NCBI GenBank assembly: GCA_048320885.1
Contig: JBLWFJ010000001.1
Location: 5,761,697-5,825,696 of the forward strand
Direction: 5' to 3'
Source of the DNA: Nannocystaceae bacterium ST9
GTDB taxonomy: Bacteria; Myxococcota_A; Polyangia; Nannocystales; Nannocystaceae
DNA length: 64,000 bases
The translations under genes and the position numbers were made by a program. Below the pieces are notes generated by a model, which made no database searches, had not been told where the DNA came from, and worked only from the letters and a program-made list of their open reading frames with translations. Each line of letters begins with the position of its first letter. Position 1 is the stretch's first letter. Positions 9,762 through 54,179 of this stretch are shown piece by piece.

Positions 9762-10670
9762 GTGCCCTCCAAGCTCCATCAAGCCTTCGTCGCGATCCTG
9801 CGTCGGCGCGAGTGTGCCTGCGAGCTCGCCCGCCTCGTCGACGCGCCCGAATTCCCCGCCGAGCGCTGGGCCGAGGTCGAGGCCGAGTTCGCCGATCCCG
9901 ACAACACCGGCAAGCTGCGCCACGCCGATCTCGCGCTGGTCGCCTTCGTCGACGGAGACACCAGCAAGCCGGCGCTCGCGGGTCTGTTGCTCGAGCCCCA
10001 GCTTCACCGCGATCCCGCCAAGCCCTACACCTGGACCTTCTACTGGGCCGCGCTGCGCATTCGGTACTGCTGTCCGGTCTGGGAGATCGTGGTGAGCCCC
10101 GACGAGGGGCTCGTGCAGTGGGCCGAGCGCTCGCTCGACGGCGAGGTCCGCCGGATCCACGTGCTCGGCGGCGATCGGATCCCACCGGTCCTCGATCACG
10201 AACGAGCGCGAGCCAACCTCGCCTGGGCGACCCTGGTGGCGGCGCTGCACGCCGAGGGTCCCCATGCGCTGGCGAGCGCCCGAATCATCATCGACATCTG
10301 CGCTACACTGAGCGCGACCGAGCGCAGGTCGTACATGGAACTGATGGTCGCGGGAATGAGCGAAGAGACCATGAACGAGCTACACACGACGCAACTGCCC
10401 GAAGAGATCGAGTGGGAGCTGACCGAGTACGAGCGCCGGACCGTCGGCTTCGTGCACGGCAAGGCCGAGGGAAAAGCCGAAGGAAAGGCCGAAGGAAAGG
10501 CCGAGGGCCAGCGCGAGGCGCTGCTGAGCGCGATCGAAGCCCGCGGCTTCGCGTTGACCCCGGCCCAGCGCGCCATCGTCGACGCCTCCGACGATCCCCT
10601 CCTGCTCGATCGGTGGCTGCGCCGGCTCTTCCGGGTCGACTCGATCGACGCGCTCTTCGCCGAAGCCTGA
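9762..10670 (+). CDS. Rpn-family (YhgA-like, PD-(D/E)XK) recombination-promoting nuclease / putative transposase-like protein with a C-terminal DUF4351-like tail.
   Basis: 302 aa with strong GC3 bias. The C-terminus (GKAEGKAEGKAEGKAEGQREALLSAIEARGFALTPAQRAIVDASDDPLLLDRWLRRL) matches the DUF4351 pattern of G-K/E repeats followed by ...FG/F-L-P ... LL..W. The N-terminal D...E.Q-type core is DLALVAFVDGD...LLLEPQL. Recalled from family knowledge, not searched. Confidence 0.55.
   Translation: MPSKLHQAFVAILRRRECACELARLVDAPEFPAERWAEVEAEFADPDNTGKLRHADLALVAFVDGDTSKPALAGLLLEPQLHRDPAKPYTWTFYWAALRIRYCCPVWEIVVSPDEGLVQWAERSLDGEVRRIHVLGGDRIPPVLDHERARANLAWATLVAALHAEGPHALASARIIIDICATLSATERRSYMELMVAGMSEETMNELHTTQLPEEIEWELTEYERRTVGFVHGKAEGKAEGKAEGKAEGQREALLSAIEARGFALTPAQRAIVDASDDPLLLDRWLRRLFRVDSIDALFAEA
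10447..10500 (+). repeat. 12-bp in-frame tandem repeat ×4 encoding (GKAE)4 within the Rpn-like gene.
   Basis: Read directly in the sequence. Confidence 0.8.
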
Positions 10671-38042: not shown

Positions 38043-38086
38043 GCCGCTTGCACGCCCGCGCGCGATGCCGGACGCTGCTCGACGCG

Positions 38087-39202
38087 ATGATCATCGAGGT
38101 CGAGAAGGGCAACGAGACCACGCTCGGACACATCCGCGACCTCGCCGGTCGCTACGGCAATCGAGTCGAGCTCAAGGACGGCTCGCTCTACGTGACCGCG
38201 TGGATCATCGGCGACACGCGGGCCTTCGAGACGCGCACCGACTACCTGCGCGGGCTGCCGGGCGTGAAGCGGGCGTGGCGGGTCGCGGCCGAGTACAAGA
38301 ACATCGCTCGGGTCGTGCGCAGCGAAGACGGCCGCGCGCACGTCCGCGAGCGCCGGCCGGTCGGCGTGAAGGGGCTCGACGGTCACGTGCGTCGGTTCGG
38401 CGCCGGCAAGCACATCTTCGTGGTCGGGCCCGACTCGGCCCAGGATCTCCAGCAGGTCCTGACGATCGCCCGCGGAGCGCGAGACATGGCCGAGAAGTTC
38501 GGGATCCTCGATCGCGTGATGCTGCGCGGCGGCGCGTTCAAGCCCCGCACCCGGCCGACCGACTGGCGCGGGCACGGCATGAAGGGCGTAGCGATGCTCG
38601 ACGCCGGCCGCGAGGAGAGCGGGCTGCCCTACGTCACCGAGGTCATGGATCACAACCTGGTCGAGGAGATGGCCGAGCACGCCGACATGCTGCAGATCGG
38701 CACCCGCAACGCGCAAAACTTCGATCTCCACGAGGCGGTCGGGCGCTCGGGCAAGCCGGCCATTCTCAAGCGCGGGTTCGGCAACGAGGCCAAAGAGTGG
38801 TTCTACGCGGCCGAGTACATCGCCAATCAGGGCAACCTCGACATCGTGCTGTGCGAGCGGGGCATGAAGACGCTCTACACCAAGGGCGGATATTGCCGCT
38901 TTCACCCCGACTTCAACGTGATCACGCATTGCCGCAAAGAGACGATCCTGCCGGTGATCTTCGATCCGAGTCACCCGGCCGGCGATCATCAGATCGTCGG
39001 GCAGAACATGATCGCCTCGCTCGCGTACCTGGCCGACGGGACGATCACCGAGACCCTGCACGAGGAGAGCTTCCGCGAGCAGCAGCTCTGCGACGCCTCG
39101 CAGGCGCTCTCGATGGAGAAGTACGCCCGGCTGGTCGAGGCCGTGCTGGAGTTCGAGCAGAAGATCACGCCGATCCTGCGCGAAGTGTCCGACGAGGCCT
39201 GA
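38087..39202 (+). CDS. 3-deoxy-D-arabino-heptulosonate-7-phosphate (DAHP) synthase, type Ibeta, with an N-terminal ferredoxin-like regulatory domain (Thermotoga-type).
   Basis: N-terminus MIIEVEKGNETTL... resembles T. maritima DAHPS MIVVLKPGSTEE. The core has RGGAFKPRT, LQIGTRNAQNF, KRGF, LCERG and DPSH. Confidence 0.9.
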   Translation: MIIEVEKGNETTLGHIRDLAGRYGNRVELKDGSLYVTAWIIGDTRAFETRTDYLRGLPGVKRAWRVAAEYKNIARVVRSEDGRAHVRERRPVGVKGLDGHVRRFGAGKHIFVVGPDSAQDLQQVLTIARGARDMAEKFGILDRVMLRGGAFKPRTRPTDWRGHGMKGVAMLDAGREESGLPYVTEVMDHNLVEEMAEHADMLQIGTRNAQNFDLHEAVGRSGKPAILKRGFGNEAKEWFYAAEYIANQGNLDIVLCERGMKTLYTKGGYCRFHPDFNVITHCRKETILPVIFDPSHPAGDHQIVGQNMIASLAYLADGTITETLHEESFREQQLCDASQALSMEKYARLVEAVLEFEQKITPILREVSDEA

Positions 39203-40105
39203 TCAGCTCAGCAGCCGCAGGGCCGCCGGCTCGATCGCGAGCTCGAAGCGGCTCGACTTCACCAGGATCTCGCCGTCGCCGTAGAAGCGGACCTCGTGAT
39301 CGGCGGTGATCGTGGCCCGGCGCGTGCGGATGATTCGCAGGTCGCGGGTCGAGGGCGTGCGCTGGACGATCGCGGCGAGCAGGCGCAGCAGGGGCACGCG
39401 GCCGCGCGGGAGCAGAATGCACAATTCGAACAGCCCGTCGGAATTGTGCGCGTCGCGGACGACCTGCAAGGTCCGCGCGAAGGTCGATTGATTGGTCACG
39501 AAGAGCCCGTGCGATTGCACGCTCGTGCGCCGCCACTCGCCGGTGCCCGGATCCTCCCATTCGACGTCGAGCCGATGCAGTGGCAGCGTGCGCAGGCAAC
39601 ATTGCGCGCCGATCACCGGATAGAGCGAGACGCCGAGATCGTCGATCCAGCCGCCGCGGCCCTCGTTGCGCAATTGATTGACGCGATGGGCGATCTCGGC
39701 CGGCAACCCGAGCCCGCCGGTCGTGCAAAATCGCTGATCGTCGACGCGCACGACGTCGATCCGACAGGCCGAGCGCAGCACGAAGCTGCCGAGGTGGCCG
39801 GGGTTGCGCCGGACCCCGAGGAAGCGGGCGAGATCGTTGGCGGTGCCGAGCGGGAGCAGGGCCAGGGCGTCGCGCTCGCGCATGGCCTGCAGGGCGAGGT
39901 TGGCCGTGCCGTCGCCGCCCGCCGCGATGATCACGTCGGGCTCGTAGTCGTGCAGGAGCCGGCGCAGCGAGCCGGGGTCGTCGGTGGTCAGTCGCTCGCT
40001 GCTCGGGAAGGCGCGGGCGACCTCGCGGTCGAATTCGTGGCGGGCCGGCCCGAGCCGATCGACGGTCGGCGGGGTCATCAAGAGCAGCGCGCGGCTCGGC
40101 GTCAT
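39203..40105 (-). CDS. Diacylglycerol-kinase-catalytic-domain (YegS/BmrU-like) lipid kinase.
   Basis: DVIIAAGGDGTANLAL...LALLPLGTANDLAR. A GGAGG RBS sits 7 nt upstream of the ATG at 40105. It is the last gene of the overlapping minus-strand operon. Confidence 0.8.
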   Translation of the reverse strand: MTPSRALLLMTPPTVDRLGPARHEFDREVARAFPSSERLTTDDPGSLRRLLHDYEPDVIIAAGGDGTANLALQAMRERDALALLPLGTANDLARFLGVRRNPGHLGSFVLRSACRIDVVRVDDQRFCTTGGLGLPAEIAHRVNQLRNEGRGGWIDDLGVSLYPVIGAQCCLRTLPLHRLDVEWEDPGTGEWRRTSVQSHGLFVTNQSTFARTLQVVRDAHNSDGLFELCILLPRGRVPLLRLLAAIVQRTPSTRDLRIIRTRRATITADHEVRFYGDGEILVKSSRFELAIEPAALRLLS

Positions 40106-40692
40106 CCGATCCTCCGCTTGAGCCCGAGCGCGACCATGATCGCGGCGACGGCCGGATGGACCAGCACCGTGACCAGCAGCAAGGTGAGCACGAAGGCCGG
40201 CGAGGGCACCCGCCAGACGGCCAAGGCGATCAGCACGGCGATCGTGCTGTCGACCTGATCGGCCAGCCAGAACAGCCGACGCAGCCGCTCGGGCGCCGGC
40301 TCGCCGGGGTCGATGTCGAGTTGGCGCTTGATGAAGCTGTTGGGCAGCTCGCCGACGATGTACGCGACGCCGAGCGCCAGGCCGAGCCCGAGCGAGCCGA
40401 GCTGGGCGAGCGGGATGAAGCGCAAGCTGGGGTCGAGGCCGAGCCCGAGCGCGACGGCGTCGACGACCAGCGTCCACGCCACACAGGCGGCGATCATGAT
40501 CATCGCGCCGCGCAGGGTCTTGTTGGCGCCGAAGAGCGGGCGCCCGCGAAATTCGAGCCCGCCGTCGAGCCGGATTCGAGCCAGCTCGGCCAGCAGGTCG
40601 CGCTTGATCGCGATCACGTGGGTGAGCCCGGCGAGCGTGACCGGCAGCGCCAACCACAGCGCCTGGGCGATCGTGCCGTATTCGCCGGTCAT
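40102..40692 (-). CDS. CTP-transferase-1 superfamily membrane protein (CarS/CdsA-like cytidylyltransferase), 196 aa.
   Basis: Polytopic. Motifs GANKTLRGA and GELPNSFIKRQLDIDPG resemble the K-T-x-R/E-G and S-F-x-K-R signature region of CDP-archaeol/CDP-DAG synthases. It has 4-nt overlaps with the genes on both sides. Confidence 0.55.
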   Translation of the reverse strand: MTGEYGTIAQALWLALPVTLAGLTHVIAIKRDLLAELARIRLDGGLEFRGRPLFGANKTLRGAMIMIAACVAWTLVVDAVALGLGLDPSLRFIPLAQLGSLGLGLALGVAYIVGELPNSFIKRQLDIDPGEPAPERLRRLFWLADQVDSTIAVLIALAVWRVPSPAFVLTLLLVTVLVHPAVAAIMVALGLKRRIG

Positions 40693-41507
40693 GCTCGCCA
40701 GCCCTCCGGGTAGGCCAGATAGAGCGCGCGTAGCTCGTCGCGATGGCGGAGCAGATCGGGCAATTCCCAATCGTGCGTGTCGATCGGCGAATGGGCGTAG
40801 ACATGGATCTCGCCCGGGCGCGTGCGAAATCCGGTACCTGGATTGATGCGACGCGGGACGTCGATGTAGACCGGGACGATCGGCCAGCCGAGCTCGGTCG
40901 CGAGGTGAAAGGTGCCCTTGTTGAAGGGTCCGACCCCGCCGGTGGTCCAGCGCGTGCCCTCGGGGGTCAAGAACACGGAGTCTCGGGTCTCGCGGAGGAT
41001 CGCCTCGGCCCGGGCAAAGCAGCGCACGCGCTCGGCGGGCAGCGATTGCGGCGGGGTGAAGAAGGTCCCGGTCGACCAGCCGAGGATCGCGAGCGGCGGA
41101 TAGAGCTTGGTCCAGCGCGACATGAACGATCGCTTGTGGGCGATCGGCAGCATGCTGATCACGAAGAGATCGAGGGTCGACGAGTGGTTGCCGGTGACGA
41201 TGCAGGGGCTGGGCAGGTCCTCGAATCCATGCATGTGCACGTCGATCCGCAGCAGCCTCATGATCAGCCGCGCGCCGGCCGGGGCGATCACGTCGAGACA
41301 GAAGCGGCGCGCACGAAAGCCGGTGATCAGGTGAGCGAGCACGCAGACGATCGCGACGGCGAGCATGACCAGGTTCACGACCGTCCAGCCGAGCACGCCA
41401 CGCAGGCGCAGGTACACGCGATCGCCCAGGCCCTCGATCGATTCGAGCACCGGCTCGCTCTTGCCCGGCCCGCGCAGCTTGGCCTTGCGCTCGGCGTTGA
41501 GGCTCAC
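40689..41507 (-). CDS. 1-acyl-sn-glycerol-3-phosphate acyltransferase-like protein (PlsC/LPLAT family).
   Basis: VTGNHSSTLD (HX4D) and TPEGTR motifs. GTG start at 41507, with a GGAGG 6 nt upstream. Confidence 0.8.
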   Translation of the reverse strand: MSLNAERKAKLRGPGKSEPVLESIEGLGDRVYLRLRGVLGWTVVNLVMLAVAIVCVLAHLITGFRARRFCLDVIAPAGARLIMRLLRIDVHMHGFEDLPSPCIVTGNHSSTLDLFVISMLPIAHKRSFMSRWTKLYPPLAILGWSTGTFFTPPQSLPAERVRCFARAEAILRETRDSVFLTPEGTRWTTGGVGPFNKGTFHLATELGWPIVPVYIDVPRRINPGTGFRTRPGEIHVYAHSPIDTHDWELPDLLRHRDELRALYLAYPEGWRA

Positions 41508-42430
41508 GCTCGCCTCCGGCACACGACCGTCTGCATCGCGAGGTTGAGCCGGCGCTCGAACGCCAGCACCGGCGCGAGCGCGAGCTGGCCGGCGAAGTAG
41601 GGGTAGATCATTTTGTCGAGGTCGAGCCCCTTGCCCGCGAGCAGCTTGAACGCGGTCCCACAAAACAAGTAGAAGTAGGGCGGGAAGGCGCCGTAGGGCA
41701 GGTATTCGACCACGTCGAGACCGGCCTTGCGCACGAACGCGAGCAGCTTGGCGCGATCGTAGAGCACGGTGTGCTGAGGCGCCTGCAGGCCTGGCCAGCG
41801 ATCGCCGAAGAGCCGGAAGCTGACGCTGTCGAGCCGCGGCACCTCGATCACCAGCCGGCCTTCGTCGGCCAGCTTGTCGCGCGCGGTCGCCAGGCTGCGC
41901 AGCGGATCGTAGTCGTGCTCGAGGAAGTGCCACATCGTGATCAGGTCGAAGCCGCGATCGGGCAGGTCTTGCTCGTAGAAGAGCCCGTGGCGAAAGTCGA
42001 TCGCCTCGAAGCCGGGGTGGTGGCTGCAATCCTCGAAGTCGACGCCGGTCAGCCGGCAGCCGTAGCGCTGGCCGAGCCGAATCAAGAACGACCCGACCGC
42101 ACAGCCGACGTCGAGCACCCGCGTGGCTCGGCCGAGCCCGACGTAGCGGTGGACGAGCGCGTCCTTGTCGCGATCGTGCTTGGACATCGCCCACTCGTAG
42201 AGCGGCGCGAGCGGGCCCCAGTCGGTCTTCTTGCGATGGGCGATGTACTCGTCGTCGTAGTAGAATTTGATCGCGTCGAGATCGAGGCGCGGGTTTTGAA
42301 ACACGAGCCCGCAGTCGTCGCAGCGCACGAAGGTGAAGGTGCCGGGCTTGCCGGTCAGATCTTCTTGGGCGTCGATGAAGTGGGAGTGGCGGGCGCTACC
42401 GCAGTAGTAGCAATCGAGCGTCTCGAGCAT
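41504..42430 (-). CDS. Class I SAM-dependent methyltransferase with an N-terminal Cys4 zinc ribbon.
   Basis: CYYCGS...CDDCG followed by VLDVGCAVGSF (motif I) and DLITMWHFLEH. It overlaps PlsC by 4 nt. Confidence 0.8.
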   Translation of the reverse strand: MLETLDCYYCGSARHSHFIDAQEDLTGKPGTFTFVRCDDCGLVFQNPRLDLDAIKFYYDDEYIAHRKKTDWGPLAPLYEWAMSKHDRDKDALVHRYVGLGRATRVLDVGCAVGSFLIRLGQRYGCRLTGVDFEDCSHHPGFEAIDFRHGLFYEQDLPDRGFDLITMWHFLEHDYDPLRSLATARDKLADEGRLVIEVPRLDSVSFRLFGDRWPGLQAPQHTVLYDRAKLLAFVRKAGLDVVEYLPYGAFPPYFYLFCGTAFKLLAGKGLDLDKMIYPYFAGQLALAPVLAFERRLNLAMQTVVCRRRA

Positions 42431-43149
42431 GCGGGGCTCCAGTCGCGGCGGGCGACTCGAAGAAGGACCAGACGAACACGAGGACCAAGAAGATGGGCAG
42501 GCCGCGACCGGCTAGCGCCCGGGTGGCGGCGAACGACCACAGGCCGACCAGCAGGGCCAACCACGCGATGTCGCCGGGGCCGATCACGAAGCCGGCGAGC
42601 GCGAGGAAGGCGAAGAGCAGGCCGAACAGGCGAGGCGCGGCGTCGGAACGGCGGCGCAGCTCGGGGTCGTCGGCGCGCTCGAAGATCGCGAAGCCGAGGT
42701 AGATCAGCGTGGCGCCGATCCAGCCGAGCTCGCCGAGCAGCGCGACGAAGGCCGGATACTTGAGCAACACCCAGCGATGCCGAGCCGGCAGCCCGACGCG
42801 CTCGGCCAGTTCGAACGCCGCGGCGAGCCCGAGCAGCAGGGCCGCGCGCTCGGGCGAGTGGACGAGCGCGAGCACCAGGCAGGCGAGCGCCAGGCCGATC
42901 GCGTGGGCGAGCTCGAGCGGTCGCGTCGACGTGGCGCGGACCAGTACGCGCTCGGGGTGGAGCAGGGCGTCGCGCGAGCGCTCGGCGAGGTCGTCGCGCA
43001 GACGAAACACGGCGAGCAGCAAGAAGGCCAGGCTGGTCGCGGGCGCGCGGCCGAGCTCGAGGTCGCCGCCGAGCAGGACCAGCAGCACGGCGAGCGGGCC
43101 GAAGCGGGCCAAGGGCAGGCGTTCGCGGATCCATGCACGCACGAGGTTC
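42396..43149 (-). CDS. Polytopic integral membrane protein, function unknown (250 aa).
   Basis: Six or more hydrophobic helices. It is the only coding-looking part of the 1100-aa track ORF. It overlaps the methyltransferase gene and the upstream PEP-utilising gene start region. Confidence 0.5.
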
Positions 43150-45715
43150 ATGAGGGCTCCTGGTCGAGTCGGCGGACGCGGCCGAGGTCGCCGTCGACCT
43201 CGATCGCCTGGTCGGATCGAAGGATTCGCGTGGCGTCGGGCACCGCGATCACGCCGGGGATCCCGAACTCGCGCGCGACGATCGCCCCGTGCGAGAGCAT
43301 GCCGCCGCGCTCCATCACCAGGCCCTTGGCGAGGAAGAAGAGCGGCGCCCAGCCGGGATCGGTCTGGCGGGTGACCAGGCAGTCGCCGCGGCGGAACTGG
43401 TCGGCGTCGGCGAGATCCTCGAGCACGCGCGCGGGGCCGATCGCTCGCCCTCCGGCCACGCCCACGCCGGTCAGGACTTCGGCGTCGCGATCGAACTCGC
43501 TCTCGATCGGCGAACCCTCGAGGTAGGTGCCGACCGGCAGACGCACGCTGTCGGGCGGGCGCTGCTCGGACAGCCGAGCGTGCTCGCGGCGACGCAGGAC
43601 GATCAGCTCGCCGGTCAGCGCGGGGAACATCGCGTGGCCGCCCAGCCAGTCGTCGATCTCGCGCCAGCTCAGGAAGAGCAGATCGTCGGGGGCCGCGAGG
43701 CGATGCTCGGCGTGCAGTCGCTCGCCGAGCCGACGGATCAACATGCGCAGCCGACTGTAGAGCAGGGCCTGCTTCAAGCGGGCGCGCTCGCGGTAGCCGA
43801 TCGCTCGCTGGGTCATTCGCAGCGCGCGATCGAACGCGAAGCGCCACCCGAACCCGAGCCGCCCGCGGACCTCGGCGACCACCCGATCGCGGCGCTCGGC
43901 CTGCGCGGCCGTGGTCTCGCACGGCGAGGGACCCTCGAGCTCGAGGTAGGGCGCGAGCACGGGCAGCAGCGCGGCGGGCTGCTCGAGGTAGCTGCGCGTG
44001 GTCAGCATCAGCTCGCCGGAGATCCGGTAGCCCCAGTCGCGCAGGTAGTCGTCGAAGGCCCGGCGAAACTCGGCGTGGCGATCGTGGGTGCGGATCTGGG
44101 CGAGCAGGGCCTCGGGGTCGCGGGTCGCGAGTCGAGTGAAGCCGTCGCGCAGCTCGACGTCGGCCCGAGCGATCCGCGAGAGCGCCCACAGGCCCTCGAT
44201 CGGCCCGGAGCTGACCACGTCGGGGATCGCCAGCAAGAGCGTCTGCGGCAGTCGCTGGGCGGCCGTGGGCCCGAGCGAACGGGCGAGGATCCTGCGCAGC
44301 AGTGCGTAGGCGAGCGTGGCCGCGAGGTCGGCCAGCGACGCGTCGGCCCACTGGTGAAAGCGAATGTCGAGGAAGCCGCGAAAGCGCGCGAGCAGGTCGG
44401 CGATCGTGACGTCGGCGCTCGCGAGCTCGCCGAGCGCGTCGATGTCCGCGACCCAGCGATCGACCCGTGCTTCGAAGCGCGGCAGTCGACGCGGCAGCGA
44501 GGCGAGCGAGCGGGTGGCGATCACGAGCACGCGGATCAGGTCGGTGGTCGTGGAGGGCGTTTCGCCGCCGCTCGCCTTCATGCTCGGTGCTCGGCCGCCC
44601 TCTTCGTCCACGCCGACGAAGCCGTCGAAGGCCGCGGCGAGCTGACTGCCGAAGGGCGCGGCGCGGATGCAGGCGTGAATGTGGGTCAGGTCGTAGTAGA
44701 GCCGGGCCCCGTGCACGCCCACGCAGTGGCGCAGCGGATGCTCGATCGACGCGAGCACCGACTCGCGCACGCCGAGCAGGCGCCCGAGGTTGCGAAAGTA
44801 GTGCTCGTAGGCCTCGCCGGCGATCGAGTAGAGCAGCGGCGAGATCGGCCGCGGGTAGTTCTCGTTGACGTTGACGTTCGAGAACACCTGGGTGGGTCCA
44901 CGCGACGCGGGCGACCCGGGTGATGTCGTGATCGCTCGGCTCTGGACGATCCAGAGCTGGCCGGCACGATCGATCACCCACTCGACGTCCTGCGGGCCGC
45001 CGAGCGCTCGCTCGAGTCGCAGGCCGATCGCCGCGAGCTCGGCGAACTCGGCCGGCGGCGCGTGGTCGCGGGCGAAGCTCGCCCGCAGGGGATCGACGGC
45101 GCCCGCGACCAGCTCGGCGGGGTGGCCCTCGACGTACTCGATCGCGATCGCCTCGGGGTCGCTCGGCGAGCGCGTGAACAAGACGCCGCCGCGCGCCGGG
45201 TCGATCATCCGCTGCACGATCACGCCCATGCCTCGCAGTCGCCGACCGCGGGCGCGCTGATAGAAGAGCGAGCGCGCCGACCAGTACGAGCCCCAGCAGA
45301 TCCGCAGCGCTCGCTCGAGCTGCGCGGGCGTGCGGACCTCGAGCACCGAGTCGAGCTGGCCGGCGAACGAGTCGGCCTCGGAGTCCTCGCCGAGCGCCGA
45401 GCTGCGCACGATCCACGCGCCCTCGCCGGGCCAGGCGGCGAGCAGCGCGGACCAACACTCGGGCGGGATCGTGGCCTGATCGACGAGCGCCTGCATGGCC
45501 GCGGCCGCGCGGGTGAAGCTGGCCGGATCGTCGAGCGCCAGCGTCTGCTCGGCCAGCGCGGCGTCGAGTCGGTTGAGCGCGACGAAGCGATCGAAGACCT
45601 CGCGCTCGACGACCAGGCCCTCGGGCACCGGGAGCGCTAGCCCGATCAGCCGCGCGAGGTTGGCCGCCTTGCCACCGACCCGCTCGGGGTCGCTGCACTC
45701 CGCGAGCGCGAGCAT
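43148..45715 (-). CDS. PEP-utilising enzyme (phosphoenolpyruvate synthase / pyruvate-phosphate dikinase-like; PPDK_N ATP-grasp plus a C-terminal mobile phosphohistidine domain). Likely a small-molecule or lipid phosphotransferase.
   Basis: N-terminus GGKAANLARL...WIVRSSALGEDSEADSFAGQ. C-terminus GDCLVTRQTDPGWAPLF...ERGGMLSHGAIVAREFGIPGV (catalytic His). Its ATG overlaps the desaturase stop (TGATG). Confidence 0.85.
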   Translation of the reverse strand: MLALAECSDPERVGGKAANLARLIGLALPVPEGLVVEREVFDRFVALNRLDAALAEQTLALDDPASFTRAAAAMQALVDQATIPPECWSALLAAWPGEGAWIVRSSALGEDSEADSFAGQLDSVLEVRTPAQLERALRICWGSYWSARSLFYQRARGRRLRGMGVIVQRMIDPARGGVLFTRSPSDPEAIAIEYVEGHPAELVAGAVDPLRASFARDHAPPAEFAELAAIGLRLERALGGPQDVEWVIDRAGQLWIVQSRAITTSPGSPASRGPTQVFSNVNVNENYPRPISPLLYSIAGEAYEHYFRNLGRLLGVRESVLASIEHPLRHCVGVHGARLYYDLTHIHACIRAAPFGSQLAAAFDGFVGVDEEGGRAPSMKASGGETPSTTTDLIRVLVIATRSLASLPRRLPRFEARVDRWVADIDALGELASADVTIADLLARFRGFLDIRFHQWADASLADLAATLAYALLRRILARSLGPTAAQRLPQTLLLAIPDVVSSGPIEGLWALSRIARADVELRDGFTRLATRDPEALLAQIRTHDRHAEFRRAFDDYLRDWGYRISGELMLTTRSYLEQPAALLPVLAPYLELEGPSPCETTAAQAERRDRVVAEVRGRLGFGWRFAFDRALRMTQRAIGYRERARLKQALLYSRLRMLIRRLGERLHAEHRLAAPDDLLFLSWREIDDWLGGHAMFPALTGELIVLRRREHARLSEQRPPDSVRLPVGTYLEGSPIESEFDRDAEVLTGVGVAGGRAIGPARVLEDLADADQFRRGDCLVTRQTDPGWAPLFFLAKGLVMERGGMLSHGAIVAREFGIPGVIAVPDATRILRSDQAIEVDGDLGRVRRLDQEPS

Positions 45716-46668
45716 CAGATGTCGAGCCCCGACTGATCGCGGTTGGAGTAGAGGAACACGTGGGCGGGGATCCGCTTGGCCGCGAGCGCCCAGGCCAAGG
45801 GCGCGACCTCGCCGGGCATCGGTCGACGGATCTTCGCGAGTCGGTAGCCGGGCGTGCGCGGCAGCTCGTGGTGGAGCTCGTGGGCGTCGAAGCCCAGAAA
45901 GAGCCAGCGCGAGATCCAGCCCGGGCAGCGGAGTGAGCGAGTGAAGCGGACCTGATCGGCGTAGGCGAAGGGCTCGACCTCGCGTTCGCCGGCGACCTGC
46001 ATGGGCACGTGGGTATGCTGGCTGAGCAGGACCACGTCGAGGATCTGGTTGGAGACGAGCAAGGGCAGCCCGATCACCTTCACGATCGGACCGAGCCCGA
46101 ACAGCGCGATCGAGCCGACCAACACGATCGAATAGAACCCGGCCTGCACGAGCACGGCGCGACGATGCCGACGGCGATGGACGGGGCGCGGGAACAGCTC
46201 GTACAAGCGCGGCAGGTTCCAGTAGTTGTTGAGCCGGTAGACCACCGCGAACACGGGGATCCACAGCCGCCAGCACCAGTCCATCGCGAACTTGGTCAGC
46301 GGCGGCAGCTCGCGCGGGACCAGGATGTTGGTGGTCGGGTCCTTGTCTTGCCAGCCGGTCCAGCGGTGGTGCTGATGGTGGATCGCTCGCCAGGTCGCGA
46401 AGGGAAACCCGGCGAACAACCCGGCGACGTGACCGACGATCACGTCGAGCCGCGGCGTGGCGAACAGCGTCGCGTGGCCACACTCGTGCAGGACGAAGAA
46501 CCACTGCAACAGGCAGCCGGTCAGCAGCAGGGTGCCGAGGCCCCAGGCGAGCCAGGAGTCCTGGCTGGCGAGCACGAGCCCTGCCGCGCTCGCGAGCGCG
46601 AGCCGAAACGTGATCCATGCGCCGATCCAGTCGCTCGAGCGCAGGTCGTGGGACTCTCGATCACGCAT
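45715..46668 (-). CDS. Membrane fatty-acid desaturase family protein (di-iron, three His boxes).
   Basis: HECGH, HHQHHRW, HELHH. 317 aa from MRDRESHDL. Confidence 0.8.
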   Translation of the reverse strand: MRDRESHDLRSSDWIGAWITFRLALASAAGLVLASQDSWLAWGLGTLLLTGCLLQWFFVLHECGHATLFATPRLDVIVGHVAGLFAGFPFATWRAIHHQHHRWTGWQDKDPTTNILVPRELPPLTKFAMDWCWRLWIPVFAVVYRLNNYWNLPRLYELFPRPVHRRRHRRAVLVQAGFYSIVLVGSIALFGLGPIVKVIGLPLLVSNQILDVVLLSQHTHVPMQVAGEREVEPFAYADQVRFTRSLRCPGWISRWLFLGFDAHELHHELPRTPGYRLAKIRRPMPGEVAPLAWALAAKRIPAHVFLYSNRDQSGLDI

Positions 46669-47992
46669 GGCGGCGACGCAGGCCGAGCAGGCCGAGCAGC
46701 GCGAGCGCGGCGATCGGACTCGCGGGTCGGGGTTCGCTGGTGCAGCCGCAGCCCTCGTCGCCGCGATCGATCGCGGGCCCGCAGGGATAGGTGCAGTCGG
46801 TGTCGGCCTCGTCGAGGTTGCCGGAGTCGGCCTCGCTGGCGCCGCTGCTCTCGCCCGTGGGCTCGCAGATCCCATCCACGCAGGTCAGGTCGGGATCGCA
46901 GCCGCCCCCGGGCGTGCAGGGGCAACCTTCGCCGCCGATCGGACACTCGCCGCCCTCCGTCGACGAGCCGCCAGAGCTCGTGCTGTCGCCCTCGCCGGAG
47001 GTCGTGGTGGTGGTCGAGTCGCCGTCGCCGTCGCCGGCCCAAGTGAAGCGCACGCTGTCGAACGCGAGCGGGTGCATCAGGGCATAGGCCTCGCCGGTGT
47101 TGTCGGGCAGCTCGACGAACTGATCGCCCGAGCCGTCGAAGCCGAACACGCCGAGCGACTGCCAGCTCTTCTGCGTGGCCTGATCGACGCCGACCATGCT
47201 GACCTGGCCGGCGTGGTGGACATGATAGACGGCGCCGCTGGCTTGCGCGGTGCCCTCGGGCACGTGCACGGCGACCTCGTAGTCACCGGGCACCGACACG
47301 CCGAAGCGCCAGCGGCCGATCGTGTCGGCCTGCGCGGCGTCGGTCGTGTACGTGTACCAGTGGTGCCCGTCGAGGCCCTCGCCCGCGTCCCACCACCACT
47401 TGGTCAGGCGATCGAAGCAGGTCTTGTCGGACTCGGACACGAGCGTCTCGCCGCCGGCCAAGACCGCACCGCATGCGCCACAGTTCTCGCTGGTCATCGA
47501 CTCGCCGTCCGCGACCACGCCCGCGGCGTAGAACTCGGAGGGGATCGACTGGCACCACCACGAACCGCAGAGCCCTTGAACTTGGAAGTGCAGGTGCGCG
47601 CCGCAGGTCCAGCCGGTCAGGCCGACGCGGGCGATCGTGTCGCCGGCTTCGACGAAGTCGCCGAGCCCGAAGGGCGACGAGTTGCCCTCGACATGCATGT
47701 AGAGCCCGGCCGTGCCGTCGCCGTGATCGATCACCACGTAGTTGGCGTCGTTCGCGTAGGTCTGGCTGCATCCGCCGACCTGCGAGTCCATCTCGATCAG
47801 CACGATCGTGCCGGCGTGTGCGGCCTTGATCTCGGTGCCGAGCGGCAAGCCGAAGTCCCAGGCGAACTGCGCGAACCCGGTGTGGCTGGTCGCGCCGCCG
47901 TTGCCTTGCGTGCACGGGTAGGTGGCTTCGCAAGCCCAGGGCGCCTCGAGGTGGGGTTCGATTGCGAGCAGCAGCGCGAGCGAGGCGAGCAT
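46661..47992 (-). CDS. Secreted M23 (LytM-type) metallopeptidase with a C-terminal Cys-rich region and a MYXO-CTERM-like sorting tail.
   Basis: HTGFAQFAWDFG...VIDHGDG...GWTCGAHLHFQV. C-terminal ...GCGCTSEPRPASPIAALALLGLLGLRRRHA. Overlaps the desaturase start by 8 nt. Confidence 0.75.
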   Translation of the reverse strand: MLASLALLLAIEPHLEAPWACEATYPCTQGNGGATSHTGFAQFAWDFGLPLGTEIKAAHAGTIVLIEMDSQVGGCSQTYANDANYVVIDHGDGTAGLYMHVEGNSSPFGLGDFVEAGDTIARVGLTGWTCGAHLHFQVQGLCGSWWCQSIPSEFYAAGVVADGESMTSENCGACGAVLAGGETLVSESDKTCFDRLTKWWWDAGEGLDGHHWYTYTTDAAQADTIGRWRFGVSVPGDYEVAVHVPEGTAQASGAVYHVHHAGQVSMVGVDQATQKSWQSLGVFGFDGSGDQFVELPDNTGEAYALMHPLAFDSVRFTWAGDGDGDSTTTTTSGEGDSTSSGGSSTEGGECPIGGEGCPCTPGGGCDPDLTCVDGICEPTGESSGASEADSGNLDEADTDCTYPCGPAIDRGDEGCGCTSEPRPASPIAALALLGLLGLRRRHA

Positions 47993-48108
47993 GTCCGCCA
48001 AGGTACGCCAATGGTCGGGTTCATGACTGTCCCTCTGGCCGGTTGCCGGCCGGTTGGGCAGCGCGTGTCGACGACGCGTGTTCGACATCGACCTGTTCGC
48101 TCGGCGGG

Positions 48109-48153
48109 TGTGTTTTGAGTGATTTGAACCACTGAAATGATGGGGATATAAGC
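48109..48153 (+). promoter_or_regulatory. Putative sigma-70-like promoter (TTGAAC-N17-TATAAG) ending 6 nt before the ATG of the 48159 gene. It may drive a leaderless transcript.
   Basis: AT-richer island tgaTTTGAACcactgaaatgatggggaTATAAGccacgcATG in an otherwise 70% GC region. Positions and match are read by eye. Confidence 0.3.
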
Positions 48154-48158
48154 CACGC

Positions 48159-49898
48159 ATGCGACGTCTGCCCCCCGATCTCGCTCGCGTCACGAGCCGC
48201 CTCAGCCTGGTCGCGCTGCTGCTGCTCGGCGGCTGTGCCTACTTCCGAATCACCGAGAGCACGCTCGAGCAAGCCCAGGCGGCGCAGGCCGCCGGCGACG
48301 AGGTGAAGGCCGAAGAGCTCTACCGCGAGGCGATGCGCGAGAAGGGTCGCGACCGCGAGGACGCCAAGCGCGGGCTGGTCTCGCTGCTCTTGCAGAAGGC
48401 CGTGCGGGTGGCCGAGACCGATCAAGAGGAGGCGATGCGGATCCATCGCGACGTGCTGACGATGGTGCCCGAGTCCGACGAGGCACGGATCGCCTACGGC
48501 CGCGCCCTGATGAACTCGCAGCGCTTCACCGAGGCGATCGACGTGCTGATGGAGGCGCCCAAGTGCCGCGGCTGCAAGACCATGATTTCGGTGATCTACA
48601 TCGCCCGGGCCGAGCACTCGGTCAGCGAGGGGGCCTTCACCGACGCACTCGCCGACTACGACCAGGCGATCGCGCTGAGCCATGATCCGCTGACCGTGCT
48701 GGCCAAGGTCGACATCTACACCAAGAGCGGGCACGGCAAGGCCGACGACGCGGTCGCCTGGCTCGATCAGGCCCAGCGCCTGCTGCCGGTCGACCAGACC
48801 GGCCAACAGGCGCTCTGGTTCGAGAAGCGGACCGAGGTGATCTACTGGGCCGCGATGCGGAGCGAGCACGAGGCGATCGGTCGCGCGCTGACGCTCGACG
48901 ATCCGCGGACCCGCGTGCCGGCCGAGCAGAAGCTGATCGACCAGCTCAACCTGCAGATGTACGCCGCGTCCTTGCAGATCTATCAGCAGCAGTTCGACGT
49001 CGGCACCCAGCGCGGGCTGGCGACCTGGCAGCAGGCCCAGGCCGCCAACCTGAGCGGCGCCCCGCTCGAGTCGCTGCGCAAGACCCTGCTCTCGCTCTTC
49101 GCCCAGCGCGTGGCGGTCCACATGGCCAACGGCGAAGAGAAGCAGGCCCGCGAGGTGATCGCGATGGGCCGCCAGGTCGATCCCGAGGATCGCATGCTGG
49201 CCCTGCAGGACATCATCGTCACCGCGATGCGCAACACCGGCAACGCCCGCAAGATGCTCGAGGAGTGGAAGGACGACGAGGCCTACGTCCGCATGCGCGC
49301 GCTGGTCGAGACCGTCTACGCCCAGAAGATGATGGGCATCGGCCAGTTCACCGCCGCCGCCGGAGCGGTCGAGAAGGCCAAGAAGATCGATCCCAACCTG
49401 CTCGAGACCAAGCTGGCCGCCGCCGAGCTGCTGGCCGAGACGCGGCTGGTCGATCTGCGCAAGGTCTGGGCCGAGAACTTCCGCGAGATCGCGACCTACT
49501 CGTACCCGGGCGGCCGGATCAACTACTACGGGCAGGCGCTGGCCGAGCTGCGCGGCGTCCAGGCCATGTTCGACGAGAACGCCCAGCGCGACTTCCTGCG
49601 CGGGCCGAGCGTGGGCAAGCGGATCGCCGCGCTCGAGCAGCGGATCACCGGGTTCTATCCCTTCGCCGTCGAGTCGCGCCCGGACGGCAAGGCGACGATC
49701 GTGCTGACCCGCAAGGAGGGCTCGGCCGTGACCGTGGCCGTGCAAGGCCCGAGCAAGGCCCACGAGGTCGCGGTGCCCGAGAACGGCCAAGCCGAGCTGG
49801 TGCTCGAGGGGCCGGGCTACGTCGTCGTGACCACGCCGAGCGGCGGTCGCAAGGCGATGTTCGCCGAGCCGGGGGTCGCGATCATCGTCGACCTGTGA
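48159..49898 (+). CDS. TPR-repeat lipoprotein (lipobox LLLGGC), function unknown.
   Basis: Signal peptide plus lipobox. Repeated A/Y/L-rich helical hairpins (EAMREKGRDREDAKRG..., IAYGRALMNSQRFTEAI...). Confidence 0.6.
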   Translation: MRRLPPDLARVTSRLSLVALLLLGGCAYFRITESTLEQAQAAQAAGDEVKAEELYREAMREKGRDREDAKRGLVSLLLQKAVRVAETDQEEAMRIHRDVLTMVPESDEARIAYGRALMNSQRFTEAIDVLMEAPKCRGCKTMISVIYIARAEHSVSEGAFTDALADYDQAIALSHDPLTVLAKVDIYTKSGHGKADDAVAWLDQAQRLLPVDQTGQQALWFEKRTEVIYWAAMRSEHEAIGRALTLDDPRTRVPAEQKLIDQLNLQMYAASLQIYQQQFDVGTQRGLATWQQAQAANLSGAPLESLRKTLLSLFAQRVAVHMANGEEKQAREVIAMGRQVDPEDRMLALQDIIVTAMRNTGNARKMLEEWKDDEAYVRMRALVETVYAQKMMGIGQFTAAAGAVEKAKKIDPNLLETKLAAAELLAETRLVDLRKVWAENFREIATYSYPGGRINYYGQALAELRGVQAMFDENAQRDFLRGPSVGKRIAALEQRITGFYPFAVESRPDGKATIVLTRKEGSAVTVAVQGPSKAHEVAVPENGQAELVLEGPGYVVVTTPSGGRKAMFAEPGVAIIVDL

Positions 49899-49917: not shown

Positions 49918-51840
49918 TCAGCCCATGCGCTGCTGGAAGTAGAGCTCCTCGATCGCCTTGACCTTGTCGGCCTCGCCGGCGTGCTTGTCCGAGCGAATCG
50001 CTACCAGTTTGGGGTCGCGCAGCTTGAGATCGCCGGTCTCGTTGTCCTTGACGATGCCCTCGAAGCGGACGGTCACGACGATGTGCGGCCGCAGCTCGAC
50101 GCCGGGCCGCACGCCCGACGAGCTCTGGCGAGTGGTCCGCTTCCCGGTCATCAGGCCGTTGCGCATGATCTCGGCCTGCAGCTCGCGGTCGCGGATCTGA
50201 TCGACGCCGGCGACGTCGCCGACGTCGAGGAAGCCGCCGTCGTTGGTCCGGGCCCCGATCGCGAAGCTGCCGAACATTCCGGCCTTGGCCTTGCTGGTCA
50301 CCGAGAACACGCCCTCGATCAGCACCAGATCCAGCGTGATCTCGGGCTTGCGCTTGAGCCAGTCGGGGTCGCGGCGGGCCAGCGCGTACACGCCGTCGAG
50401 ATCCTTGGTGATGATCCCTTCGTAGCCCTGGCTGCGGAAGTGCTGGTAGAGCCGATTGACGTCGTTCTTGTCCTTGGCCAGCTGGCCCTCGGCGATCGTC
50501 AGCGGGATCGGGTTGGGGAAGTTGCTGACCGGGCCGAGGAACTGCTGGAGCAGCTTGCGGCGCTCGTGCAGGGGCAGCTGGGTCAGGTCGCGGCCGTTGA
50601 GGTAGACGAGATCGAAGGCGGCGTACTTGAGGTTGACCGGGCGCTGGACGACCTCGCCCGACAAGCTGGCGTAGACCTCGTAGACGGTCGCCGGGCGGGC
50701 GCCGTCGAGATCGAACACCGAGCCGAACAGCTCGCCGTCGATGATGCAGTCGCGGCAGGGGAAGTTGGCGATCGTCTGACGCATGCCGGTGATCTGCTCG
50801 AGCCAGTCCTTGCGTCCGCGCGTGTAGGCGGCGCAGAGCATCGAGCCGCTCGCGTCGGTCGACTTGTGCAGCATCAGGCGGATGCCGTCGTACTTGCGCT
50901 CGACCCAGCAGGGGTACTTCTTGACCGTGTCGGTCGAGCCGCTGGCCAGCGCGGGCTTGACCGCGACGAGCGGCTGGAGCTGGACCTCGCGCAGACCGTC
51001 GGGGCCCTTGGCCGCGAGCGTCTTGGCGACCGAGAAGGGATCCGACAGGGCGATCGCGTGCTGGACCGCCTCGGGCTCGGCCCCGTAGTACTGGCCGAGC
51101 GCGCGAGCGATCACGGCGCCCTCGTATTCGAACCCGAAGTCGGCCTTGCCGAGGATCAGCCGGGCCATGAAGTAGGCCTCGATCTTGCCCATCCGCTCGA
51201 GCAGCGAGCGGAGCAGATCGAACTTGAGCGAGCGGACGGCGTCGGGCAGGAACTCGAGCGTCAGCATGACCTCGCCGGCGGTCAGCGGCGGATCGCTCTT
51301 GAGCTGCTTGCGCGACTCGGCGAACAGCACACCCGGATCGCCGACCCGCGACAGGCGATCGAGCATGTCGCGGTAGCTGACCATCGTGACCGACATCAGC
51401 AGACGCAGCAGGCTGTCGCGCTTGAACGTGCTGGTCCGACCGAGGAACACGTCGCCGACCAGACAGCCGATCTTCTGGACCGCCGAGAGCCCGGTGTCCT
51501 TGTCGAGGAAGCGCTGGACCAGCTCGGCCCGACCGGCCGTGTCGGGCGGCGGGTCGCCGACGATCCCGAACAAGCTCGCGGCCTTCTCGGGGTGCATGCG
51601 CATCAGCGGCATGAACAGCCCGCGGCACAGCGAGTGAAAGGGGATGGTCGCCAGCTCCGAGAGCGAGCGCCCGGCCTGCGTGAGCTGATCGGTCACGAAC
51701 TGCACGTGCAGCGGCAGGCCGAGCACCTCGTCCATGTACTCGTAGCTGGGCCGGTGACTGCCGATCTGCCCGGTCAGCAGCTCGAGGCTCTCGCCCGAGT
51801 GGAACCACTTGCGGATGGTCGCGTCGTCGACGATGTGCAT
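49918..51840 (-). CDS. ATP-dependent DNA ligase (Lig1/LigB type, with an N-terminal DNA-binding domain).
   Basis: Adenylation motif I VERKYDGIRLMLHK, then LCAAYTRGRKDW...DGELF..., EGIITKDLDGVYALARRD...WLKRKPE, and an OB domain. Confidence 0.85.
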   Translation of the reverse strand: MHIVDDATIRKWFHSGESLELLTGQIGSHRPSYEYMDEVLGLPLHVQFVTDQLTQAGRSLSELATIPFHSLCRGLFMPLMRMHPEKAASLFGIVGDPPPDTAGRAELVQRFLDKDTGLSAVQKIGCLVGDVFLGRTSTFKRDSLLRLLMSVTMVSYRDMLDRLSRVGDPGVLFAESRKQLKSDPPLTAGEVMLTLEFLPDAVRSLKFDLLRSLLERMGKIEAYFMARLILGKADFGFEYEGAVIARALGQYYGAEPEAVQHAIALSDPFSVAKTLAAKGPDGLREVQLQPLVAVKPALASGSTDTVKKYPCWVERKYDGIRLMLHKSTDASGSMLCAAYTRGRKDWLEQITGMRQTIANFPCRDCIIDGELFGSVFDLDGARPATVYEVYASLSGEVVQRPVNLKYAAFDLVYLNGRDLTQLPLHERRKLLQQFLGPVSNFPNPIPLTIAEGQLAKDKNDVNRLYQHFRSQGYEGIITKDLDGVYALARRDPDWLKRKPEITLDLVLIEGVFSVTSKAKAGMFGSFAIGARTNDGGFLDVGDVAGVDQIRDRELQAEIMRNGLMTGKRTTRQSSSGVRPGVELRPHIVVTVRFEGIVKDNETGDLKLRDPKLVAIRSDKHAGEADKVKAIEELYFQQRMG

Positions 51841-54128: not shown

Positions 54129-54179
54129 GGTCGGGTGCCGGTCGGGCCGGGACGATATCATCGCCCGCGGCAGTCCTGC

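Follow-up and report, generated by a model that had tools for sequence, protein, structure and literature searches.

What do the enzymes of a compact string of overlapping genes in the myxobacterium Nannocystaceae bacterium ST9 make together? The string occupies positions 39203-47992 of the window, by which is meant the whole stretch of 64,000 nucleotides that was analysed (GenBank assembly GCA_048320885.1, contig JBLWFJ010000001.1, positions 5,761,697 to 5,825,696 of the forward strand). The original prediction, made from the letters of the DNA and a list of its reading frames, saw here a seven-gene "lipid tailoring" operon and proposed an undescribed lipid class or lipid-modification system. 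The analysis described below leads to the conclusion that the cluster very probably encodes a dedicated lipid pathway, the product of which is probably a novel, possibly ether-linked phospholipid. The enzyme families are known ones in an undescribed combination, and the defining feature of this combination is a hidden UbiA-like/CarS-like pair accompanied by unusual kinases. The idea of a lipid pathway has thus held, but "tailoring" is too modest a term for a unit with the appearance of a biosynthetic pathway in its own right.

The Gene String

The window has a G+C content of around 69%, and raw lists of its open reading frames (ORFs) are crowded with spurious frames. The gene model was based on frame profiling by third-position GC (GC3) and on the inspection of start codons, which together give a single, unambiguous string of eight consecutive minus-strand genes, that is, the seven lipid genes and the M23 peptidase gene that had been predicted:

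46661-47992, minus: G0, M23 peptidase, 443 amino acids (aa)
45715-46668, minus: G1, membrane di-iron desaturase/hydroxylase, 317 aa
43148-45715, minus: G2, Rph-architecture ATP-dependent phosphotransferase (PPDK_N/PEP-utilizers), 855 aa
42396-43151, minus: G3, divergent UbiA-superfamily polytopic membrane protein (predicted), 251 aa, about 8 helices
41504-42430, minus: G4, S-adenosylmethionine-dependent methyltransferase with an N-terminal CxxC...CxxC zinc ribbon, 308 aa
40689-41507, minus: G5, PlsC-type lysolipid acyltransferase with an N-terminal transmembrane (TM) anchor, 272 aa
40102-40692, minus: G6, CarS-type (CDP-archaeol-synthase-like) CTP-transferase, 196 aa, 5 TM helices
39203-40105, minus: G7, soluble DAGK_cat/YegS-type lipid kinase (predicted), 300 aa

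From G0 to G7, successive genes overlap by 8, 1 (TGATG), 4 (ATGA), 35, 4 (GTGA), 4, and 4 nt, and there are no non-coding bases between 39203 and 47992. The overlaps of 1-8 nt claimed earlier are found at six junctions, including the 8 nt shared by the M23 peptidase gene, with its MYXO-CTERM tail, and the first operon gene; they do not extend to the G3/G4 junction, where the overlap is 35 nt. This long overlap is considered real because the start of G4 is fixed by its homologues, to which the protein is 84% identical from residue 1 on, and because an overlap of 35-38 nt is also called in the homologous loci L015, L016, and L019. The genes lie on the same strand, without intergenic gaps and with overlapping stop and start codons, as in an operon, and from the overlaps we infer a single transcript and stoichiometric expression.

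Conservation of the Cluster

The arrangement is also found outside ST9. Loci were gathered from the contexts of G2 and G3 homologues and from scans of genomes and metagenomes, and were typed by tblastn. Around 90 loci with a G3 homologue were collected in this way, in Myxococcota, Gammaproteobacteria (Lysobacterales), and Acidobacteria, and in every one of the 81 loci in which the upstream flank extends for 300 nt or more, an Rph-like gene immediately precedes the UbiA-like gene. The loci fall into three layouts, some of them in metagenome-assembled genomes (MAGs):

Layout A, four-gene core: Rph-like, UbiA-like, CarS-like, DAGK-like; in L001, L004 (Enhygromyxa), L014, L020, L022, and the Lysobacterales MAGs L002/L003
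Layout B: desaturase, Rph-like, UbiA-like, methyltransferase, PlsC, CarS-like, DAGK-like; in the window, L015/L016, L019, and L021
Layout C: desaturase, CarS-like, Rph-like, UbiA-like, methyltransferase, PlsC, then FAAL and an acyl carrier protein (ACP)/thioester-reductase with a C-terminal APH/EcKL kinase domain, often followed by a CDP-alcohol phosphatidyltransferase; in dozens of contigs from soil and sediment, Hyalangium rubrum (L101; assembly GCA_034259325.1, contig JAXIVS010000004.1), and an Acidobacteria MAG (L102)

Synteny had been set beforehand as a check on the proposal, and the seven-gene order does recur in L015/L016, L019, and L021, and related layouts are present in about 90 loci. 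Layout B is the form of the Nannocystaceae and their relatives; its proteins are 64-85% identical to those of the window, with the exception of the UbiA-like protein (44-54%). Layout C is the commonest of the three. The desaturase heads the cluster in L015, L019, L021, and most FAAL-type loci, and PlsC follows the methyltransferase in all 46 loci with a scored pair of the two. In layout C, the score of the thioester-reductase domain exceeds its cut-off, and the APH/EcKL domain comes next; the CDP-alcohol transferases that are often linked to the cluster score best against models of archaetidylserine synthase and PssA.

The distribution of the kinases is instructive: the DAGK-like kinase alone is present in 7 loci, the FAAL/reductase/kinase protein alone in 32, both in none, and neither in 1. 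Because the two are mutually exclusive, this distribution suggests one obligatory kinase slot in which the DAGK-like and the FAAL protein displace each other. The conserved unit is a four-gene core consisting of the Rph-like, UbiA-like, and CarS-like genes and one lipid-alcohol kinase, rather than seven genes, and the desaturase, methyltransferase, and PlsC genes form an add-on module present in two of the three layouts.

Two gene fusions were encountered. The UbiA-like and CarS-like genes form a single ORF of 438 aa (L014, 2955-4271) in the Myxococcota-like MAG GCA_976551095.1, which is 1 of 9 adjacent pairs; the methyltransferase and PlsC genes form one of 552 aa (L102, 9992-11650) in the Acidobacteria MAG GCA_013697225.1, which is 1 of 46 pairs. 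A gene of the alkaline-ceramidase family (Ceramidase_alk) lies 3 kb upstream of the latter fusion. Elsewhere, the cluster of L017 is flanked by a Rieske-TPP (thiamine pyrophosphate) fusion enzyme, another TPP enzyme, and a phosphoenolpyruvate (PEP) carboxylase.

An Rph-Type Phosphotransferase

G2 had been taken for a PEP-synthase-like dikinase that was out of place in a lipid operon. PPDK_N and PEP-utilizers domains are indeed its Pfam matches, and its only ones; the kinship to PpsA has not survived. The architecture of G2 is that of an ATP-grasp domain (PF01326), an Rph_4th domain (PF27448, from precomputed annotation), and a phosphohistidine swivel (PF00391), and Pfam finds no C-terminal PEP/pyruvate-binding TIM-barrel domain in it. 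G2 scores far below the cut-off of every NCBIfam model for PpsA (TIGR01418, 203 bits against a cut-off of 740; PRK06464, 210 against 598), PPDK, Rph (the equivalog NF041857, 278 against 999), PigC (241 against 1300), and RedH (275 against 1350). The closest solved structures are those of the Listeria rifampin phosphotransferase (5fbs and 5hv1); the swivel motif GGMLSHGAI is intact, and its histidine aligns with the catalytic histidine of 5fbs. The absent TIM-barrel, the scores below cut-off, and the Rph structures as nearest neighbours rule out a genuine PpsA or PPDK, and G2 is, on its predicted activity, a phosphotransferase of the Rph architecture.

In enzymes of this architecture, the beta-phosphate of ATP passes via a histidine to the acceptor. 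Rph itself and the PigC/RedH enzymes share with G2 the identical three-part arrangement of ATP-grasp, helical substrate domain (Rph_4th), and phosphohistidine swivel, with the catalytic histidine retained. Unlike them, G2 is encoded amid lipid genes, in strict linkage with the gene for a UbiA-like membrane enzyme; in view of this context, it presumably acts on a lipid or headgroup precursor rather than on an antibiotic or a pyrrole aldehyde. A second, shorter protein, with PPDK_N only (664 aa), is encoded in L015 (2091-4085, minus), where it lies with two unannotated genes divergently upstream of the layout B cluster.

A Cryptic Member of the UbiA Superfamily

The protein encoded next to G2 had been described simply as a membrane protein. 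G3 is indeed polytopic, and its motifs and fold sharpen the description to that of a cryptic UbiA-superfamily transferase. Neither the Pfam search (no significant match) nor a profile search of the PDB sequences (noise only, E > 0.5) identifies it, and Pfam UbiA is found at E<=1 in 8 of 34 G3 relatives, with a best E-value of 4.6e-7. The first Asp-rich motif of the superfamily, (N/D)DxxDxxxD followed by a basic residue, is represented in G3 by D53-D54-L-A-E57-R-S-R-D61; in the alignment of the 34-sequence family, D53, D54, D61, and R68 never vary, at least 90% of the members have D at position 57, and a KY pair is also conserved. A later motif, (Y/F)-E158-R-x-D-D162, is conserved as well and offers an ExxxD acidic pair where the canonical second UbiA motif has DxxxD. 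The AlphaFold model computed from the 34 sequences (predicted local distance difference test, pLDDT, 92.4) has the UbiA membrane fold, and Foldseek ranks ApUbiA and digeranylgeranylglyceryl phosphate (DGGGP) synthase first among its matches.

The motifs, the family-level Pfam matches, and the modelled fold together assign G3 to the UbiA superfamily as a predicted intramembrane transferase. Since G3 is itself under the Pfam threshold and so few of its relatives match even at E<=1, it represents a divergent branch rather than a standard member. An exhaustive profile search of 1.84 billion proteins returned 1043 representative clusters (at 50% identity) at E<=1e-3 and 294 at E<=1e-30. The G3 family is real, mid-sized, and largely unannotated, mostly escaping Pfam, and G3 is the signature gene of the cluster.

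The CarS-Like Enzyme and Its Partners

Pfam and NCBIfam bear out all the domain calls made for the gene string, and the catalytic motifs are intact. None of the proteins compared with NCBIfam equivalogs (PlsC PRK15018, CarS PRK04032, YegS, and the diacylglycerol/lipid kinases) comes anywhere near a cut-off. G6 reaches the gathering score of the CarS-like family PF01864, has five TM helices and the CTP-transferase motifs, and is also of the CarS type by fold comparison; its similarity to the CdsA family consists of a sub-threshold match to Pfam CTP_transf_1. Against the CDP-archaeol synthase equivalog NF003114 it scores 57 bits, with a cut-off of 148, so that by these comparisons G6 is a CarS-type protein that is not established as a CDP-archaeol synthase.

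Another group of bacterial CarS-like genes turned up in the Steroidobacteraceae-like gammaproteobacterial MAGs L005-L013, where a stand-alone gene (~10001-10560), the product of which is ~45% identical to G6, adjoins an Lrp-family regulator, genes for branched-chain keto-acid dehydrogenase E1, and, in most, a TPP enzyme. All the other genes of the cluster are absent there. These genes were accordingly treated as a separate subfamily and set aside as a guide to function; they constitute a second, unexplained bacterial context of CarS-like proteins.

The remaining enzymes are more conventional in sequence. G1 matches Pfam FA_desaturase (PF00487; E=1e-31, 111 bits against a cut-off of 29.7) and has the His boxes HECGH, HHQHH, and HELHH; no match to it was found among the PDB sequences. 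G5 matches Pfam Acyltransferase (PF01553; E=2e-16, 60.5 bits against 23), with the HX4D motif present as HSSTLD at residue 108, and scores 28 bits against the housekeeping PlsC equivalog PRK15018, for which the cut-off is 501. G7 combines DAGK_cat and YegS_C in Pfam with a GGDGT motif and PDB matches to BmrU, YegS, and DgkB; it is predicted to be a lipid kinase and would fill the kinase slot of the core. G4 is a class I methyltransferase (Pfam Methyltransf_23, E=6e-22) with the zinc-ribbon motifs CYYC...CDDC. It is the best-conserved protein of the cluster, at 84-85% identity in the seven-gene loci, where the other proteins are at 44-78%, and at 59-69% in the FAAL-type loci, where the others are at 35-47%. 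This conservation suggests a tightly constrained substrate or partner.

A Possible Route to an Ether Phospholipid

A glycerol-phosphate lipid is commonly handled by PlsC, CarS, and PssA-like enzymes, which acylate it, activate it with CDP, and provide it with a headgroup. Set against this standard trio, the enzyme for the first chain is missing, and an enzyme of the UbiA fold and two phosphorylating enzymes are left over, joined in layout C by machinery that converts a fatty acid to an alcohol and includes a kinase domain of its own. The simplest interpretation is a route in which the UbiA-like enzyme attaches the first chain. A lipid alcohol would be phosphorylated by the DAGK-like or APH-type kinase; this would be a fatty alcohol in loci with the reductase and, in ST9, a fatty alcohol or a prenol supplied from elsewhere. 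The Rph-like enzyme would turn the lipid phosphate into a diphosphate by way of the histidine-bound beta-phosphate, and the UbiA-like enzyme would move the chain to a glycerol-phosphate-type acceptor, forming an ether bond as DGGGP synthase does. PlsC would then acylate the free hydroxyl, the CarS-like enzyme would make the CDP-activated lipid, and a CDP-alcohol transferase, which in ST9 would be encoded elsewhere in the genome, would add serine or another headgroup. Finally, chain or headgroup would be modified by the desaturase and the methyltransferase. The outcome of this archaeal-style chemistry in a bacterium would be an ether glycerophospholipid of the alkyl/acyl or prenyl/acyl kind.

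We give this UbiA-based ether phospholipid route, with the steps in this order, a probability of roughly 0.4; the further proposition, that it is a genuinely new bacterial way of forming ether bonds in which archaeal ether chemistry is applied to bacterial chains, is more doubtful. Several points weigh against the route. The order of the steps was deduced from domain families alone. G3 itself scores 9.1 bits against Pfam PF01040, for which the gathering score is 34.2. UbiA enzymes normally ionise allylic diphosphates, and as a donor a saturated alkyl diphosphate would, to our knowledge, lack precedent and be chemically more demanding. The Rph-type enzymes that have been characterised transfer phosphate to hydroxyls, and we know of none that makes a diphosphate from a phosphate monoester. 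The route leaves unexplained how the four-gene core functions without PlsC, and a glycerol-phosphate-forming or GGGPS-like gene (GGGPS, geranylgeranylglyceryl phosphate synthase) is absent from the cluster. As for the two fusions, they are consistent with consecutive steps and carry little weight; each is a single occurrence in a MAG, which an indel error at a 4-nt overlap could explain.

Because both the alkyl-diphosphate donor and diphosphate formation by an Rph-type enzyme lack precedent, other mechanisms were retained. One follows the logic of the mycobacterial decaprenyl-phosphate phosphoribosyltransferase (DPPR synthase), itself of the UbiA family: the lipid phosphate made by the kinase would be the acceptor, the soluble Rph-like enzyme would provide a polar donor, phosphorylated or activated as a diphosphate, and the UbiA-like enzyme would join the two with release of diphosphate, giving an alkyl- or prenyl-phospho lipid with a phosphodiester linkage. 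The CarS-like enzyme and the CDP-alcohol transferases would then build a second phospho-headgroup, and PlsC would acylate a hydroxyl of the polar part. DPPR synthase is 13% identical to G3, and genes for phosphoribosyl pyrophosphate (PRPP) and arabinan are absent from the cluster; we regard this mechanism as unlikely, if worth keeping in mind. Another possibility is that CDP activation comes first: the CarS-like enzyme would convert the kinase-made lipid phosphate into a CDP-lipid that serves as the donor for the UbiA-like enzyme, with CDP or CMP as the leaving group, and the Rph-like enzyme would phosphorylate the acceptor or the product. This would relieve the Rph-like enzyme of having to make a diphosphate, it accords with the position of CarS ahead of the Rph-like and UbiA-like genes in the FAAL-type layout, and the single UbiA-like/CarS-like fusion is compatible with either order of steps. 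However, no UbiA-family enzyme is known to us to take a nucleotide-diphosphate-linked donor, and the frequent PssA-like CDP-alcohol transferase already explains the consumption of a CDP-lipid, which makes this order improbable.

The remaining explanations dispense with the ether phospholipid altogether. Conceivably, the UbiA-like enzyme prenylates an aromatic or other non-lipid acceptor, as in the making of a secondary metabolite or a quinone-like molecule, with the Rph-like enzyme activating or condensing a substrate at the expense of ATP, as PigC or RedH do, and the lipid genes serving to supply or modify a side chain. Some sources label G3 relatives "UbiA prenyltransferase" or "4-hydroxybenzoate polyprenyltransferase", the latter label pointing in this direction, and G2 also scores against the PigC and RedH models, but far below their cut-offs. 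Genes for a DAHP synthase and an aminotransferase adjoin the operon in the window, but they do so convergently and in no other locus; it is PlsC, CarS, the PssA-like transferase, and the FAAL/reductase that are conserved in the cluster, not genes for aromatic precursors. A prenylated small molecule is thus quite improbable. It might also be argued that housekeeping plsC, cdsA-like, and dgk genes have come by chance to lie beside a PEP synthase of central metabolism, given that the individual families are common and that automated annotation labels G2 a "PEP/pyruvate-binding domain-containing protein". Yet G2 lacks the PEP/pyruvate domain and falls short of the PpsA cut-offs, the equivalog models for the housekeeping enzymes are all missed by a wide margin, the likeness to CdsA is sub-threshold, and the arrangement is kept across Myxococcota, Gammaproteobacteria, and Acidobacteria. 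Chance juxtaposition is effectively refuted by this synteny and by the domain architecture, and the original proposal of an undescribed lipid pathway stands in this respect.

Relation to Known Systems

A search of the literature found no description of this gene set, such absence being no proof of its absence from all literature, and the gene neighbourhood is not present in the paper on the Lipocone superfamily. The nearest parallel is with archaeal phospholipid synthesis, in which DGGGP synthase (DGGGPS), CarS, and archaetidylserine synthase catalyse consecutive steps (PMC9385802). The UbiA-like, CarS-like, and serine-synthase-like enzymes of the cluster match these three steps. The differences are nevertheless considerable: the hosts are bacteria; genes for glycerol-1-phosphate (G1P) dehydrogenase and GGGPS are absent from the cluster; PlsC implies an ester chain; the two kinases (Rph-type, and DAGK-like or APH/EcKL) have no archaeal counterpart; the fatty-acid-reducing protein of layout C suggests fatty rather than isoprenoid chains; and all the sequence scores of the cluster are below the equivalog cut-offs. 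Because the equivalog scores fail, the G1P and GGGPS genes are absent, and enzymes for acyl and fatty-alcohol chains are present, the cluster is not a member of the archaeal pathway. The best-known bacterial candidates for the making of archaeal-type lipids, in the Cloacimonadota, have no CarS (PMC7852524).

In Myxococcus xanthus, the genes for ether lipids are elbA-E, with ElbD, the AGPS gene MXAN_1676, and CarF. The elb genes, like those considered here, form an accessory myxobacterial lipid operon with a suspected ether product, and layout C further resembles them in having an ElbD-like adenylating-enzyme/ACP/NAD-reductase protein, a PlsC-type acyltransferase, and an associated membrane desaturase. 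In the window, no FAAL/ACP/reductase (ElbD-like) match was found. The elb operon encodes two NAD-epimerase-like proteins (one of them ElbE), an HAD phosphohydrolase (ElbB), and a protein of unknown function (PMC9131029), and genes of the Rph-like, UbiA-like, CarS-like, methyltransferase, and kinase types are all missing from it; the difference in gene content rules out that the cluster is an elb operon. The lipid kinase also called to mind the ceramide-phosphoglycerate genes cpgA-D of Caulobacter, which were rejected since they include no Rph-like, UbiA-like, or CarS-like gene.

In the salvage of phytol by plants, the kinases VTE5 and VTE6 feed the UbiA-family enzymes HPT and chlorophyll synthase, so that an alcohol becomes a monophosphate, then a diphosphate, and then the substrate of a transferase. 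This is the logic of the ether route proposed above, and a member of the CTP-transferase superfamily takes part in the plant system too. The plant system differs in that its kinases belong to other families, the CTP-dependent protein is itself the kinase, and the products are tocopherol and chlorophyll rather than phospholipids.

Significance

The genes behind the ether-linked membrane lipids of aerobic bacteria are still largely an open question, and surveys of bacterial ether lipids make use of the homologues of ElbD, AGPS, and Ger/PlsA (PMC11868695, PMC9131029). In the cluster, CarS-type and UbiA-fold enzymes are strictly linked in bacteria; kinases accompany them, as do, in most versions, a protein that reduces fatty acids and a transferase resembling serine synthases. 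If the ether route is correct, it would add a further ether-bond-forming system to Ger/PlsAR, ElbD, and AGPS, one that is widespread in soil Acidobacteria and Myxococcota, and the linked desaturase and methyltransferase could bear on the genes for the ether-linked and the methyl-branched bacterial lipids of soils. Whatever the product, the cluster provides the first functional context for a UbiA-like family of about 1000 clusters at 50% identity, for a branch of the large orphan family of Rph-like kinases, and for bacterial CarS homologues. It is common in soil and sediment metagenomes and is experimentally reachable in the cultured Hyalangium rubrum and in the named strain ST9.

The Flanks of the Operon

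The M23 peptidase gene at the head of the string is a different matter. Its product, which is secreted, carries Golvesin_C (E=4e-13), a linker rich in Ser, Gly, Thr, and Cys, and the MYXO-CTERM sorting tail (TIGR03901, 28 bits against a cut-off of 20); an alternative start at 48088 would give 475 aa, as compared with 443 aa from the start at 47992. An M23 homologue lies beside the cluster only in the window and in none of the other loci typed. G0 is thus a local passenger outside the conserved system, which may, to judge from the overlap, be co-transcribed with G1 here.

Upstream of the gene string, a single stretch is non-coding:

47993-48158: shared with a divergent gene for a tetratricopeptide-repeat (TPR) protein (48159-49898, plus)

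This stretch, which has an AT-richer segment at ~48100-48150, is likely to be the promoter region of the gene string. A scan with the sigma-70 consensus, which is uninformative for a myxobacterium, found no promoter-like site, and a scan for terminators gave five terminator-like sites against 3.1 expected by chance, which is equally uninformative. At the other end, the convergent DAHP-synthase-family gene (38048-39202, plus) and G7 stop on the adjacent bases 39202 and 39203; there is therefore no space for a terminator on either strand.

The other neighbours in the window (aminotransferase, DAHP synthase, TPR protein, DNA ligase, and PolX) are unrelated to the cluster and not conserved across the loci. 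Further away, a plus-strand gene (30570-33224) encodes a protein of 884 aa with major-vault-protein domains (MVP_shoulder, E=6e-28; Vault_3, E=2e-6, 28.4 bits against a cut-off of 28.8), and such a homologue is unusual in a myxobacterium. It is followed by a region (33258-35544, plus) in which no ORF exceeds the GC3>0.82 filter and which contains two HNH-endonuclease genes (HNH_2; DUF222+HNH); this region, which lies between the vault-like gene and the gene for an RsmD-like methyltransferase (36253-36831), is possibly an insert of foreign or mobile DNA. Upstream of the operon, an ATP-dependent DNA ligase gene (49918-51840, minus) lies near the gene for a PolX-PHP polymerase (54135-56360, plus), with a nucleotidyltransferase fragment and a GNAT acetyltransferase gene between them, and this region may constitute a neighbourhood of repair genes.

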